DNA from: a virus
Lineage: Monodnaviria; Loebvirae; Hofneiviricota; Faserviricetes; Tubulavirales; Inoviridae
IMG/VR virus record: IMGVR_UViG_2671181030_000002
Reading direction: 5' to 3' (one strand)
DNA: 4,052 nucleotides
The position numbers and the translations under genes are program-made. Positions 1-4,052 of this stretch are shown piece by piece. The notes under the pieces were generated by a model that was given only the letters and a program-made list of their open reading frames with translations, searched no databases and had not been told where the DNA came from. Each line of letters begins with the position of its first letter. Position 1 is the first letter of the stretch.

Positions 1-225
1 ACAGACCGTAATCCACTGGCCCAGGACGTCTTTCAGGCAATGTTGGCATAAATCCAGTTTTAAGCGATTACTGTCACCAAAAATTGAACCGTATCCAGCT
101 AAGTGATTAACAGACAGAAACTCATTGAACTCAATGTCATCTACCACCGTCTTCGCATGGCGACCACAGCGATCGCAGGTCTTCGCACATAACATTACAG
201 TATCGCTGGATGTGAAAAATTGCAT
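1..225 (-). CDS. Hypothetical protein, N-terminal 75 codons only (gene continues past position 1); zinc-ribbon / possible HNH-like nuclease motif
   Basis: Manual translation of the minus strand from ATG at 225..223 gives MQFFTSSDTVMLCAKTCDRCGRHAKTVVDDIEFNEFLSVNHLAGYGSIFGDSNRLKLDLCQHCLKDVLGQWITVC with no stop before the window edge. It is absent from the ORF track, presumably because it has no in-window stop. A GAGGAG Shine-Dalgarno lies 5 nt upstream of the ATG. Two Cys pairs (C17-x2-C20, C60-x2-C63) bracket N40-H41 and N53. Same strand as the phage genes. Confidence 0.5.
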   Translation of the reverse strand, partial: MQFFTSSDTVMLCAKTCDRCGRHAKTVVDDIEFNEFLSVNHLAGYGSIFGDSNRLKLDLCQHCLKDVLGQWITVC

Positions 226-230
226 TTTAT

Positions 231-236
231 CTCCTC
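231..236 (-). promoter_or_regulatory. Shine-Dalgarno (GAGGAG) for the ORF starting at 225
   Basis: Plus-strand ctcctc at 231..236 is GAGGAG on the minus strand, followed by the 5-nt spacer ATAAA and then ATG (225..223). Confidence 0.55.
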
Positions 237-342: not shown

Positions 343-651
343 TCATATAAACCAATAGACCGTCCTTACGCCATTCTGGTTATCAATAACATAGCCGCAT
401 TGTTTCCTTAAAAATTCTTCTGCTAAATCAATGGCTTTTACAGAAATCTCATAAGAAGGAAGTAAAGTGTATCCTTTCCCTTCACTGGCAGCTGCTTTGA
501 TCGCATCCAGAGTATTATCAATCAGTAACAGAGCAAGTGATGCTTCATTTACCTGAGCCGAAGAACTTCTGGCTGCAAGTGTCATTGTTTTTGCTTCTTC
601 CGCTGTAATCGTTCGTTCTGCCAGAGCAGATAAAATCCCATAAGAATCCAT
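343..651 (-). CDS. Hypothetical 102-aa protein, no recognisable Ff counterpart; candidate accessory/cargo gene
   Basis: Complete ORF in the track (ATG 651..649, TGA 345..343). A GGGGT Shine-Dalgarno-like sequence sits 5 nt upstream of the ATG. Same strand as the phage block, immediately downstream of gIV. The protein is Ala/Leu/Ser/Glu-rich (helical-looking) with a hydrophobic C-terminus; I recognise no catalytic motif. Confidence 0.5.
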   Translation of the reverse strand: MDSYGILSALAERTITAEEAKTMTLAARSSSAQVNEASLALLLIDNTLDAIKAAASEGKGYTLLPSYEISVKAIDLAEEFLRKQCGYVIDNQNGVRTVYWFI

Positions 652-673: not shown

Positions 674-729
674 CCATTTGATGGATAGCGAGCAGGGCTC
701 ACGCACCTACCCGCTATCCATCAAAGTGG
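674..729 (-). other. Imperfect inverted repeat / stem-loop (17-bp stem, one bulge, 21-nt loop) overlapping the gIV stop codon; candidate terminator-like or packaging-signal-like hairpin
   Basis: Arm 674..690 (ccatttgatggatagcg) is the reverse complement of arm 712..729 (cgctatccatcaaagtgg) except for one extra base (g726). Loop is 691..711. The gIV stop (TGA, plus 721..723) lies inside the right arm. On the minus-strand transcript the hairpin is followed by a moderately U-rich stretch (ACAUUAUUGAUU). Confidence 0.6.
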
Positions 730-1986
730 ACGAATGATATGTGCTGTAAGCAAAATATACATAATACGCTGTTCATTGCTGTCTGCCTTGCTACTGAAAA
801 TCCAGCCTATAAGAGGAATTTTACTTATAACTGGAACTGAACGCTCGGCATTGCTGAACGATGAATCGATAAGCCCCCCCAATAACAACGTCTGACCATC
901 CTTAATCTGGACTGTCGTCTGAATCTGGCGCTGATTAGTAATAATATCGGATGCCTGATCATCATTGCTGATTGAATCAGCGCGAGTGTCGATAGTCAGA
1001 ACTAGTTGCCCGTTACCCATGACAACAGGCGTTACCTTGAGAGAAACGCCAACATCATGACGCTCGATAGTCTGAAACGGATTATTTACCCCGGCAGATT
1101 CGCCCGTTACCTTTCCGGTGATAAACGGCACATTCTTACCTACGGAAATGTAACCAGTCTGACCAGACTGAGTAAGAATACGCGGCGTTGAAATCACCTT
1201 AGAGCGTGAATTACTCTGGACAGCACGCAGAGACAGCGCCAACACGTTACCATCAAAAATACCAAAAGAACCGCCCGCCGTAGAAAGAGCGCTACCCAGT
1301 GCAGAAGTATTAAAGCCCCCCGCAACCTTATGACCGGATGCAGAACCTGCCGCAAACGATAAATCAACGCCATCAGACAAGCTGGTTTCAAACATCAGCG
1401 ACTGAATGAGAACCTGATCGCGGGCAACATCCACAGAATTGATAAAATCGGACAGAACCGGCAGCAGCTCGTCAGGCGCAGAAACAATCAGCGAGTTATT
1501 GCCTGGATAATCCACGACATTACCACCACCATTAGAATCAAGATAAATTTTAATCAGTTGCTGAACATCGGACGATCTAACTTTTGTCAGCTTAAAATTT
1601 CTGACCGTAAGCGCCACAGGTACTGGCTGGTAAGATGGCTCAGAAGGAAAAGTATCATAAGACTGGTTATCAGAATCATCGGAATCCGAAACCATCTGTG
1701 AAGGTAATTTAGACGGCAAAGAGACTACCGCAGGATTGCCAGAAAGCATGACAAAACCGTTAGCATTCAGAACAGACTTAAAGAAATCATCAATATTTGT
1801 TGGATTAACATCAGCATTAAATACGGTTACGTTTCCTTTAATATCAGGATTAACAATAACAGGCTTGCCAGTTTTTGAAGAATACCACTGAACAAATGAG
1901 CGAACAGATGAATTATTTAAATTAACAGTTTCAGCAGAAACGCAGAATGAATAGGCAAATAAAAAAGCAACAATAACAGAGCGCAT
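721..1986 (-). CDS. gIV: Filamentous phage gene IV protein (pIV), outer-membrane secretin for virion export
   Basis: The ORF-track translation from MRSVIVAFLFAYSFCVSA (signal-peptide-like) onward aligns by eye along its whole length with M13 pIV as I recall it (e.g. GGSFGIF, NVPFITG, GESA.VNNPFQTIER, DGQTLLLGGL, SKIPLIG). I place the start at ATG 1986..1984 rather than the track's 2079, because an AGGAG Shine-Dalgarno lies 10 nt upstream and the signal peptide begins there. Predicted length 421 aa (M13 pIV about 426). Confidence 0.92.
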   Translation of the reverse strand: MRSVIVAFLFAYSFCVSAETVNLNNSSVRSFVQWYSSKTGKPVIVNPDIKGNVTVFNADVNPTNIDDFFKSVLNANGFVMLSGNPAVVSLPSKLPSQMVSDSDDSDNQSYDTFPSEPSYQPVPVALTVRNFKLTKVRSSDVQQLIKIYLDSNGGGNVVDYPGNNSLIVSAPDELLPVLSDFINSVDVARDQVLIQSLMFETSLSDGVDLSFAAGSASGHKVAGGFNTSALGSALSTAGGSFGIFDGNVLALSLRAVQSNSRSKVISTPRILTQSGQTGYISVGKNVPFITGKVTGESAGVNNPFQTIERHDVGVSLKVTPVVMGNGQLVLTIDTRADSISNDDQASDIITNQRQIQTTVQIKDGQTLLLGGLIDSSFSNAERSVPVISKIPLIGWIFSSKADSNEQRIMYILLTAHIIRPL

Positions 1987-1993
1987 AATAATA

Positions 1994-2368
1994 TTACTCC
2001 TGACAGGTAACAGTCTGTAAATAACGGCCTTTTCTAATAACAACACGACAGGCATCTTTAATATCAACGGAATAACCATCTTTAATCAAATCAAAATACT
2101 GATATTTCATACCTTTTGCATCAACAAACGTAACGGAAACGTCAAAGCCAAGTTGTGAAAAAGAATTAATAGAAAGTCGGGGTAAGTCACTGGACGAATC
2201 AGGCGTTACCGCCCTCGCCTGTTCAGCATAAGCAGATTTAATAGCTGAGATTTCATCAACATTCTTTCCAGACTGGAGCCAGAAACCAAACGCAAGCCCC
2301 AGCGCCAAAAAAGAAAGCATTAATATAAGACGGTTCGATTTGCGAAAATAAATTTTAGTGAGGCGCAT
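1994..2368 (-). CDS. gXI: pXI (pI*), product of an internal in-frame start within gene I
   Basis: In-frame ATG at codon 241 of gI (minus-strand 2368..2366; protein begins MRLTKIYFRK), the same codon position and context as the pXI start in Ff phages (M13 MKLTKIYLKK). A GAGGA sequence lies about 13 nt upstream. Separate expression cannot be shown from sequence alone. Confidence 0.6.
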   Translation of the reverse strand: MRLTKIYFRKSNRLILMLSFLALGLAFGFWLQSGKNVDEISAIKSAYAEQARAVTPDSSSDLPRLSINSFSQLGFDVSVTFVDAKGMKYQYFDLIKDGYSVDIKDACRVVIRKGRYLQTVTCQE

Positions 2369-3088
2369 ATAATAATTAAATCCTCTGTGAACAGAAAATT
2401 GACCGTGCGTGATAAATGGTGGCAAAAGCGAAAATGCGCCATGAGGATAATTATCTGTGAACGCTTGTTTGGTATTGTAAGCAGAATAAAGAGATTTTCC
2501 TGTATATATCCATTTATCAACAGTGATTGAATTAACATTATCACCATATTTGACAATGCCAAAGTGTACCTTTGGTAAAGAAAATCTCGCCCCTGAAACC
2601 AAATTCATAATGGAGCCAACAAAAGGAATGTTTAATTTATCTGAACGGCGACAATAAACAACATGCTCAGCAAGCGCCAGACGAGCTTGCTTATCCATTA
2701 TCGAAATATCCTGAATCAAAAATATAATATCCCAGCCTAATTTTCTGGCATGTAAAAACCAGTCAATAACAGGTTGTCTGTCTTTATCACCCCATGAGCG
2801 GGAATTAAACCAAGTACCACATTCATCAAGTACAAGGAGGCCATTACGGGATTCATCGTAAGATGTATTCCCAATACCAATAGCAAGTAAATCATTTAAT
2901 GAAGGCTTGTCAGGAATGCGAATAACGCGCGTTTTTTTCGCATAACGCCCAACCATAGGCATATTATGCAATTTAAGATCAAGATTAGTGGCAACAGGAC
3001 AACCCTTAGCAAGTCTTTCCTGTATTCTGGAAACACTAACAAGTGTCTTGCCTGAGCCTAATTTGCCTGTTACTACATAAACCGCCAT
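1994..3088 (-). CDS. gI: Filamentous phage gene I protein (pI), Zot-like assembly NTPase
   Basis: 364-aa ORF with an N-terminal Walker A / P-loop (GKLGSGKT) and a hydrophobic segment near residues 254-270. It is collinear with M13 pI as I recall it (MAVY.VTGKLGSGKTLVSV, LLVLDECGTWFN.RSW, QPVIDWFLHARKLGWDIIFL, HVVYCRR). The ATG at 3088..3086 directly abuts the gVI stop. Confidence 0.95.
   Translation of the reverse strand: MAVYVVTGKLGSGKTLVSVSRIQERLAKGCPVATNLDLKLHNMPMVGRYAKKTRVIRIPDKPSLNDLLAIGIGNTSYDESRNGLLVLDECGTWFNSRSWGDKDRQPVIDWFLHARKLGWDIIFLIQDISIMDKQARLALAEHVVYCRRSDKLNIPFVGSIMNLVSGARFSLPKVHFGIVKYGDNVNSITVDKWIYTGKSLYSAYNTKQAFTDNYPHGAFSLLPPFITHGQFSVHRGFNYYMRLTKIYFRKSNRLILMLSFLALGLAFGFWLQSGKNVDEISAIKSAYAEQARAVTPDSSSDLPRLSINSFSQLGFDVSVTFVDAKGMKYQYFDLIKDGYSVDIKDACRVVIRKGRYLQTVTCQE
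1997..2001 (-). promoter_or_regulatory. Shine-Dalgarno (AGGAG) for gIV, embedded in the last codons of gI
   Basis: Plus-strand ctcct at 1997..2001 is AGGAG on the minus strand, 10 nt upstream of the gIV ATG at 1986. It overlaps the gI ...CAG GAG TAA terminus. Confidence 0.6.
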
Positions 3089-3430
3089 TTAAATCACCCT
3101 GTTTGCATAATCAAGAAATTTTTGTTTTAAATCGAAAACAAAAACACTGATACGAGTAACCATAATAACGTTAACACACGCCTGAAAATGGTCAGGCAAT
3201 ACAGACGCCATTAAATGGGAGAAATCAGCAGGTAAACCGTTATACATGACCTCAGCAAGGTACTGCATTAAAAGCGTAACAGTTGTTGTAATTAATGCTA
3301 CCAATGCAAAGGCGATTAATCCTGTTCTGGTAGCAAGTCGAGCTAAAAAACTCGCCACATAGCCAATAAACAAAGGAACAAGACCAATAAGAAAACGCAA
3401 CAATGCAGGAATACCTAATAATAAAGGCAT
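3089..3430 (-). CDS. gVI: Filamentous phage gene VI protein (pVI), minor coat / virion-end protein
   Basis: 113-aa hydrophobic protein MPLLLGIPALLRFLIG..., matching M13 pVI (MPVLLGIPLLLRF..., 112 aa) in length, start and C-terminal FDLKQK/FDVKQK region. The track starts one codon earlier at GTG 3433; I prefer ATG 3430..3428, which overlaps the gIII stop (TGATG). Stop TAA 3091..3089 is immediately followed by the gI ATG. Confidence 0.85.
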   Translation of the reverse strand: MPLLLGIPALLRFLIGLVPLFIGYVASFLARLATRTGLIAFALVALITTTVTLLMQYLAEVMYNGLPADFSHLMASVLPDHFQACVNVIMVTRISVFVFDLKQKFLDYANRVI

Positions 3431-4052
3431 CACTCACCCCCTTTGCGAAGCAATGAAGTTAAAGAAGTAAAGACATACCAGAACGTAAGGCAATAAAAAA
3501 CCCATGAAAGAACATCTTTAATAGTCAGTAATTTATCGCAACCAATATCAATCTGATAAACCTCTCCGGGAAAAATAATAAAATCAGAGCAGCCGTTACC
3601 ATTGGGTAAATTAGGCAGCATAGCACCTTTATTTAAAAATGCTTCCCATAAAGCACCGTGAGAATCCTTTTCAATTCCCAATTCAGAATCAGCTAAAGTA
3701 GAAGCGCCATCTAATTCAGAGTCGCCCTTTCCATAACGAGAATCACCACCTGAAGGGTCAGCAAAACGGCCAGCCCCCCGCGTAAGATTGTTAATGGAAT
3801 CGTCAAGACGATTTATATTATTCCTGGTTTGTTCATCGGCATTTTTTTTATCATCTGATGAAGTGTCTTTCTCCGTTAATTTATCATGAATATCGCTGGC
3901 TATTTTGGGTGAAGCACCTTCGATCGCAGACTGAATATCACCTTTAGAAAGACTGGAACCACTAGAGCCACCGCCAGAACTACCGCCAGAACTACCGCCA
4001 CCGGACTCACCACCGGACTCACCACCGGACTCACCACCGGACTCACCACCAC
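3430..4052 (-). CDS. gIII: Filamentous phage gene III protein (pIII), 3' portion only: glycine-rich linker plus C-terminal membrane-anchor domain; 5' end lies beyond the window
   Basis: The minus-strand frame is open from the window edge (first full codon 4050..4048) to TGA at 3432..3430. Manual translation gives (GGES)x4-GGGSSGGSSGGGSS... and ends ...NGNGCSDFIIFPGEVYQIDIGCDKLLTIKDVLSWVFYCLTFWYVFTSLTSLLRKGGE, resembling the M13 pIII C-terminus (...ANGNG...CDKINLFRGVFAFLLYVATFMYVFSTFANILRNKES). The track entry 3430..3681 is only the tail of this ORF, reported from an in-frame TTG. Confidence 0.85.
   Translation of the reverse strand, partial: GGESGGESGGESGGESGGGSSGGSSGGGSSGSSLSKGDIQSAIEGASPKIASDIHDKLTEKDTSSDDKKNADEQTRNNINRLDDSINNLTRGAGRFADPSGGDSRYGKGDSELDGASTLADSELGIEKDSHGALWEAFLNKGAMLPNLPNGNGCSDFIIFPGEVYQIDIGCDKLLTIKDVLSWVFYCLTFWYVFTSLTSLLRKGGE
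3971..4048. repeat. Tandem 12-nt coding repeats in the gIII glycine-rich linker
   Basis: Four perfect copies of ccggactcacca at 4001..4048, encoding (GGES)x4 on the minus strand. They are preceded by two copies of ccgccagaacta at 3971..3994 (encoding GGSS-type units) and more degenerate copies further 5'. Period 12, in frame. Confidence 0.85.

Follow-up and report, generated by a model that had tools for sequence, protein, structure and literature searches.

What does the last gene of a filamentous prophage of the CUS-1/YpfΦ type encode, and is it a nuclease placed beside the phage assembly genes? The question is raised by IMG/VR virus record IMGVR_UViG_2671181030_000002, a stretch of 4,052 nucleotides (hereafter the window) that stems from the right-hand portion of a filamentous (Inovirus) prophage and carries, at its very start and on the minus strand, nearly all of a small gene that we refer to as orf77. 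A sequence-only reading of the window had noticed in the orf77 product an HNH-like arrangement of His and Asn residues bracketed by two Cys pairs, and had offered as an alternative a non-catalytic zinc domain like that of the MqsA/YgiT antitoxins, which together with the upstream open reading frame (ORF) of 102 amino acids (ORF102) would give a toxin–antitoxin (TA) layout. As a hypothetical ORF of CUS-1/YpfΦ, orf77 was already known; the novelty lies in its membership of a zinc-finger family that is very large, has no model, and resides on mobile elements, with fusions that provide a Rosetta-stone link to antitoxins. As judged from its residues, the orf77 product appears devoid of a nuclease active site.

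orf77 belongs to a large zinc-finger family without a curated model

Translation of the window from position 225 to 1 on the minus strand, a strand that had not been stated before, yields MQFFTSSDTVMLCAKTCDRCGRHAKTVVDDIEFNEFLSVNHLAGYGSIFGDSNRLKLDLCQHCLKDVLGQWITVC. The ORF had been taken as truncated and indeed ends outside the window, but all it lacks is the stop and the two codons before it, for Asp-Gln: identical DNA of E. coli ZYB62 provides the complete protein of 77 amino acids (WP_001159442.1), which ends in ...CDQ*. Exactly this protein occurs on at least 1,000 contigs, invariably named 'hypothetical', and the GenBank phage collection returned no match to either the DNA or the protein query.

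Comparison with PHROGs revealed a full-length match of orf77 to phrog_5435 (E = 4.5e-46), which is unannotated, whereas no Pfam, NCBIfam, or PADLOC model scored above threshold for the orf77 domain, the best sub-threshold match being the zinc knuckle zf-FPG_IleRS (E = 0.004). A word-indexed protein search retrieved only 14 close relatives. Their profile, run against 1.84 billion cluster representatives (clusters at 50% identity), matched 1,238 clusters at E ≤ 1e-3, of which 611 reached E ≤ 1e-10. The domain therefore defines a large family that lacks a curated model and extends far beyond PHROG 5435, reaching plasmids, transposons, and fusions to antitoxins.

An alignment of 139 family representatives, to which all conservation percentages given here refer, showed that the two Cys pairs, already noticed in the sequence-only reading, are the hallmark of the domain, with C20, C60, and C63 conserved in 100% and C17 in 99% of the sequences. 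Conservation is similarly strict for G44, S47, and D51 (99% each), Q61 (97%), G50 (96%), E35 (95%), D18 (94%), and D58 (92%), and every position conserved at 90% or above in the family is present in orf77. The resulting signature, CDRCG … ExxEF … GYGSxFGDG … DLCQHC, spans a domain some 65 residues long that is acidic on average (mean net charge −3.8) and in which the basic positions R19, R22, K65, and 73 (Arg in 70%) are moderately conserved. Four family members carry two tandem copies of the domain. Many betaproteobacterial members (P0021, P0024, P0035, P0042, P0049, P0065, and others) display a (R/K)HGGEFP motif about 20 residues past the zinc domain, another subgroup has a YQxYQ motif, and the C-terminal tail of some members resembles ParD by eye (loci listed for these observations: L014-L016, L022, L032, and L036); neither motif nor the tail corresponds to a Pfam model.

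With the 139-sequence alignment as input, AlphaFold2 returned a model of orf77 with a predicted local distance difference test score (pLDDT) of 89.9, as compared with a poor 58 for an alignment of 7 sequences. In the model, strands 14–16 and 23–25 flank the C17/C20 knuckle and are followed by a short helix (31–34), a β-hairpin (37–42/54–59) with the GYGSxFGDG loop at its tip, and a helix (61–71) that starts at C60/C63. The orf77 protein is thus predicted to adopt a Cys4 treble-clef topology of the knuckle–hairpin–helix type. The best structural neighbors of the model, namely eS26, L24e, FYVE, RING, the ClpX zinc-binding domain, and the PARP-1 finger, share this layout of the zinc site. Foldseek found no close solved structure in the PDB (E ≥ 0.05), and matches in BFVD to small uncharacterized phage zinc-ribbon proteins were marginal (E = 1.9e-3, TM 0.63–0.68).

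The zinc domain is recurrently joined to antitoxin and immunity modules

Pfam annotation of the 139 representatives uncovered N-terminal fusions of the zinc domain to Xre_MbcA_ParS_C (PF09722) in eight proteins (best E = 3e-18), to DUF4926 in two (E = 3.7e-11), and to TacA1 in one (E = 1.5e-14), and a second protein search added further PF09722 and DUF4926 fusions. For DUF4926, a role as immunity partner to RNase toxins of the DUF6883/BECR type has been proposed. Hence, the zinc domain decorates three unrelated antitoxin or immunity scaffolds. The TacA fusion (P0125) appears by eye to comprise a whole antitoxin with its ribbon–helix–helix (RHH) segment; the Pfam summary lists only the TacA1 match at the level of the whole protein, giving neither coordinates nor the member concerned. 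PF09722, the C-terminal toxin-binding domain of the Xre/MbcA/ParS antitoxins, recurs both as a fusion partner and as a neighbor of the zinc domain, but neither the N-terminal Xre-type helix-turn-helix (HTH) nor the adjoining RES/ParT/MbcT toxin of canonical members was seen here. We also considered, by eye, that Polaromonas-type proteins of about 255 amino acids end in PF09722; past their zinc domain, Pfam recognized nothing but HTH_17, and that weakly (E = 9.5e-4), and this candidate was rejected.

The same partnership exists in split form. At four loci (L076–L079, ~4001-4443), a zinc-finger gene of 78 amino acids overlaps by 4 bp a gene of 69 amino acids that encodes PF09722 only, a pair that represents the zinc–PF09722 fusion in two pieces. 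This pair is the first cargo after tniQ in a Tn5053/Tn7-like transposon, where we recognized no toxin gene nearby. Scanning of 58 genome loci with a hidden Markov model built from the C-terminal domains of the fusions identified a PF09722-like ORF within 4 kb of the zinc-finger gene in five, directly adjacent in three; Pfam confirms three. In Pectobacterium, the PF09722 gene is the convergent neighbor of the zinc-finger gene. Neither orf77 nor the other prophage genes contain a PF09722 domain according to Pfam.

Family members travel as solo cargo of diverse mobile elements

Genome loci were scanned with a 25-sequence alignment of the family. Relatives of orf77 reside on 30 PLSDB plasmids, among them Klebsiella IncF plasmids, 7–13-kb plasmids of Proteus and Providencia (one of them with the gene beside a SIR2 gene), and Ralstonia pRSI13; one relative shares its plasmid region with StbA/ParM and a DNA methylase. 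In Tn5053/Tn7-like transposons, relatives occur as cargo immediately behind tniQ, and yet others sit beside integrases and KfrA, including in integrase islands. A Pectobacterium relative maps to an island with OLD-TOPRIM/UvrD genes, which resemble the Gabija defense system. In one Pectobacterium genome, we observed about 3 kb from the zinc-domain gene of such an island a different filamentous prophage (L066 ~10089-14333), with a Phage_GPA replication protein and G5P.

IMG/VR likewise contributed 69 viral contigs with relatives (4–460 kb), with inoviruses and tailed phages among the carriers. Wherever the host ORF could be called (57 viral contigs), it was a solo gene of 73–113 amino acids, except at L101/L102 (189 amino acids). 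Neighbors are heterogeneous and comprise methylases, terminases, HTH proteins, transposases, GmrSD, and BrnT, and their clustering by blastp disclosed no conserved partner. Genes of about 350 amino acids upstream of the family members at the genome loci had been considered as Zot ATPases, an assignment that proved mostly wrong, the genes being NadA, integrase, KfrA, or unassigned. The only recurrent associations of the family are with mobile elements generally and antitoxin modules particularly.

A putative binding module in TA- or defense-type conflicts

The explanation that best accommodates these data is that orf77 encodes a zinc-stabilized, non-catalytic binding module, carried as solo cargo, that would modulate conflicts of the TA or defense type. 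C17, C20, C60, and C63 would most likely coordinate a single structural zinc, as in treble-clef fingers, and the invariant hairpin loop, together with the conserved acidic and polar residues, would provide a binding surface. The zinc finger may thereby contact a partner macromolecule, for which we favor a protein because the domain is acidic (−3.8) and is added to antitoxins that apparently already possess a DNA-binding domain. Binding of this partner would, in turn, modulate a TA or defense-type conflict. In the prophage, orf77 would act as solo accessory cargo on the antitoxin side or against host defenses, not in virion assembly. Around orf77 and ORF102, scanning for consensus motifs detected neither a σ70-like promoter nor a terminator, which is weak evidence, and orf77 may therefore be transcribed by read-through from the assembly operon. 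We assign to the complete reading a probability of roughly 0.5; its structural part is close to certain, and its functional part has about one chance in three of being correct.

Several points weigh against this reading. We infer zinc binding from the conservation of the cysteines and the predicted fold. The inspected fusions had no recognizable toxin gene beside them, be it RES, ParT, GNAT, or another, and the antitoxin link concerns only ~5–10% of the family, most copies, orf77 included, being solo. Furthermore, the conserved residues could serve other ends: R19, R22, K65, and position 73 could form a patch that binds nucleic acid, either DNA or RNA, and D18, E32, E35, S47, D51, D58, and Q61 could make up a second metal site or an unrecognized catalytic site instead of a structural one.

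Alternatively, the domain could be a small zinc-finger transcription factor, that is, the DNA-binding autoregulatory module of the antitoxins, with the solo phage gene regulating phage or host promoters. Its N-terminal location in the fusions, the usual place of HTH or RHH domains in type II antitoxins, the conserved basic residues at positions 19, 22, 65, and 73, and the weak structural resemblance to the nucleic-acid-binding fingers of PARP-1 and eS26 all speak for such a role, and many small zinc proteins of phages are regulators. Nevertheless, the acidity of the average domain is at odds with it, the helix past the second CxxC offers one conserved basic residue only, and the RHH segment of the TacA fusion (by eye), along with the weak HTH_17 match, would make the zinc domain an extra beside a DNA-binding domain, not its replacement. 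We regard a regulatory role as unlikely, though it deserves to be taken seriously.

A more specific version of the binding-module reading would cast the domain as an accessory or sensor module that conflict systems use promiscuously, and the solo copies, orf77 included, as decoys: by binding the partner of the fused domains, whether cellular or on the toxin side, they would silence or hijack TA or abortive-infection defenses. We consider this rather improbable.

Prophage setting and the relationship of orf77 to ORF102

The window belongs to a prophage of the CUS-1/YpfΦ type, integrated at dif, of which orf77 is the last gene. Along the minus strand, the partial pIII gene is followed by those for pVI, the Zot-type pI, and the secretin pIV, and then by ORF102 and orf77 (Table 1). 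A Shine-Dalgarno sequence that reads as strong precedes orf77.

Table 1. Location of orf77, its sequence elements, and the neighboring genes in the window
Feature	Position in window	Strand	Basis or remark
orf77, codons 1–75 of 77	1..225	minus	translation; full ORF in identical E. coli DNA; phrog_5435 match; literature context
Second Cys pair C60-Q61-H62-C63	37..48	minus	N-terminus of helix 61–71; H62 only 60% His
Signature loop G44-Y-G-S-I-F-G-D-S52	70..96	minus	tip of β-hairpin, alignment and model
N40-H41, proposed HNH catalytic pair	103..108	minus	end of β-strand 37–42; not conserved
First zinc knuckle C17-D18-R19-C20	166..177 (C17 177→175, C20 168→166)	minus	alignment; model
Shine-Dalgarno GAGGAG of orf77	231..236 (236→231)	minus	direct reading; 5 nt upstream of ATG at 225→223
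ORF102, upstream 102-aa ORF, phrog_4115, no annotated function	343..651	minus	context only
Gene IV-type secretin (pIV) of filamentous phage	721..1986	minus	context
Gene I-type (pI) Zot-family assembly ATPase	1994..3088	minus	context
pVI-like minor coat protein, DUF5455	3089..3430	minus	context
pIII-like attachment protein, C-terminal part with GGES/GGSS linker	3430..4052	minus	context

The first 720 bases of the window match at least 99% identically in 49 of 5,426 complete E. coli genomes. In one of these, E. coli EC5502 (NZ_CP092647.1), the 720-bp query matches at 16 chromosomal places, as would be expected if the prophage formed a very long tandem array or had been inserted many times. The same bases are identical in a 7,938-bp circular Salmonella 'plasmid' (NZ_CP140410.1, L002), which is evidently this phage in its replicative form. 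The variable arm of this molecule carries, convergent with orf77, a gene for a Doc/Fic 'death-on-curing' toxin of 244 amino acids without an annotated Phd antitoxin, where the prophage of E. coli ZYB62 has ORFs of 140 and 369 amino acids with no assigned function. A copy of the phage with 100% identity also appears on a 25-kb contig (JARKOR010000214.1, L003) binned as a 'Candidatus Nanosynbacter' metagenome-assembled genome, an assignment that probably reflects binning contamination. At the opposite end of the window (3951-4052, minus strand), the glycine-rich linker of pIII, GGESGGESGGESGGESGGGSSGGSSGGGSSGSS, is encoded by near-perfect 12-nt tandem repeats, the length of which likely varies between phage copies.

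The gene order gave rise to the proposal that orf77 is an MqsA/YgiT-like zinc-ribbon antitoxin that neutralizes a toxin encoded by ORF102 in a two-gene TA module. Both genes are small and co-oriented, and the family is genuinely tied to antitoxin modules. MqsA likewise has an N-terminal Cys4 zinc domain, an arrangement to which the N-terminal position of the family domain in Xre/MbcA/ParS-, TacA-, and DUF4926-type proteins is analogous. However, MqsA combines this domain with an HTH domain and a conserved toxin partner, and neither is found in orf77, the zinc domain of which makes up the whole 77 amino acids. As for the partner, homologs of ORF102 are confined to CUS-1 copies among 148 loci, and the zinc-finger gene lies directly after the secretin gene, with ORF102 absent, in four other inoviruses; this order was observed at L061 (relative with 82% identity), in Phytobacter (L004) and Klebsiella michiganensis (L006) inoviruses, and on IMG/VR contigs L088/L089 (64% identity) and L090/L091 (57%, K. 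michiganensis type). Since, in addition, 117 bp separate the two genes and orf77 has a ribosome-binding site of its own, ORF102 and orf77 do not constitute a conserved module. ORF102 itself showed no match to toxin families in Pfam, NCBIfam, PADLOC, or the PDB; it has no family beyond phrog_4115 and no structure match, and stands as a second unexplained cargo gene of CUS-1-type phages.

Homology to MqsA/YgiT fared no better, as no likeness was detected in sequence or fold. The comparison with zf-YgiT/MqsA, named in advance as a check, gave no Pfam match for orf77 or any of the 139 relatives; the family profile retrieved no MqsA chain from the PDB at E ≤ 10; and hhalign returned a probability of 0.7% for the family versus an MqsA sequence. 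What holds of the alternative to a nuclease is thus a non-catalytic Cys4 domain from an antitoxin-linked family; its MqsA/YgiT affiliation and the pairing with ORF102 do not, and a two-gene module of this kind is highly improbable.

The attachment region and XerCD recombination

E. coli ZYB62 harbors two tandem copies of the prophage, adjoining hipBA. A perfect 28-bp E. coli dif site is situated 39 bp past the stop codon of the terminal orf77 copy (L001 1149-1176), and the junction between the copies (L001 9860-9960) exhibits dif-like arms that are imperfect, together with an inverted repeat of 24 nt (92% complementary). These features are consistent with XerCD-mediated integration of a folded single-stranded DNA attP, as in CTXφ.

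The proximity of orf77 to the attachment region, with dif beside its stop codon and dif-like inverted repeats at the tandem junction, would suit an accessory factor that helps XerCD to integrate the phage at dif or to excise it, its gene adjoining attP as that of XafT does in TLCφ; most relatives of orf77, though, inhabit Xer-independent elements (tailed phages, plasmids, Tn5053/Tn7-like transposons, and integrase islands), and Pfam detected no likeness to known Xer activators, which leaves this explanation with very little probability.

An HNH nuclease finds no support in residue conservation, profiles, or fold

We finally return to the nuclease, which according to the sequence-only reading would be an HNH (ββα-Me) enzyme whose Cys pairs hold a zinc around a catalytic His41…Asn53…His/Asn, cutting DNA. 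C17, C20, N40, H41, N53, C60, H62, and C63 do occur where they had been placed. Zinc-bearing HNH domains such as that of McrA (PDB 6ghc) show the same order of elements, with a CxxC, a β-hairpin, and a second CxxC at the start of an α-helix, and H41 falls at the end of the first hairpin strand of the model, the position of the HNH general base. Moreover, phmmer aligned orf77 residues 16–66 with the McrA HNH domain, albeit at E = 1.6, and hhalign assigned 22% probability to the alignment of the family with the McrA segment.

These similarities do not extend to the residues that catalysis by a McrA-type HNH domain involves, since its catalytic His, Asn, and final His/Asn are not conserved in the family. 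Position 41 is His in a mere 7% of the relatives, with Phe in 37% and Tyr in 12%, and position 40 is Asn in 9%; the closest relatives, with 71–82% identity, carry Asp-Arg at these two positions. Asn at position 53 occurs in 54% and His at position 62 in 60%, the residue directly past the second CxxC, that is, the site of the final His/Asn, is Val (40%) or Leu (36%), and helix 61–71 has no conserved His or Asn. The HNH-like spacing of N40-H41…N53 is therefore a coincidence in orf77 alone.

Searches were equally negative. No Pfam HNH family, a comparison also named beforehand, matched orf77, and one of the 139 relatives touches HNH_5 (E = 0.009). The McrA match was lost with the family profile, which left generic C2H2-knuckle matches at E ≥ 0.03, and the McrA alignment is unstable, because hhalign sets the His-His of McrA opposite N34-E35, in a register unlike that of phmmer. 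An HNHc protein ranked 35th in BFVD (E = 1.2). HNH domains and treble-clef fingers are viewed as related folds with a common layout in outline, and this shared layout accounts for the HNH-like impression made by orf77, which has a real basis in topology only. With the presumed catalytic residues unconserved and no significant profile or fold match, a nuclease beside the assembly block is almost certainly not what orf77 encodes, and we dropped it.

Implications for CUS-1, YpfΦ, and the zinc-finger family

CUS-1 and YpfΦ have been reported to be 99% identical at the nucleotide level over 7.1 kb and to confer a modest in-vivo fitness gain on E. coli K1 and Yersinia pestis. In their review, Derbise and Carniel describe YPO2280a and YPO2281, the two attR-adjacent ORFs of YpfΦ, as having no predictable function, locate them where CTXφ carries ctxAB, and name these terminal ORFs without known function as the open question. 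A literature search on YPO2281 yielded nothing beyond this review. The orf77 gene shares with YPO2281 of YpfΦ and its homolog in CUS-1 the phage type and the position after the secretin gene, beside attR/dif, with no known difference. From this position and the description in the review, we infer that orf77 is the homolog of YPO2281; ORF102 is probably, by position, that of YPO2280a.

Removal of the nuclease lead, which was misleading, leaves no nuclease beside the assembly genes of these phages. The zinc domain merits a Pfam model of its own, and its family membership makes a cargo gene that had long gone unexplained in two pathogen-associated phages accessible to testing. If solo copies do act as decoys, an ORF that has passed as 'function-less' cargo in the filamentous phages of plague and E. 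coli K1 would gain a defined anti-defense or anti-addiction role.

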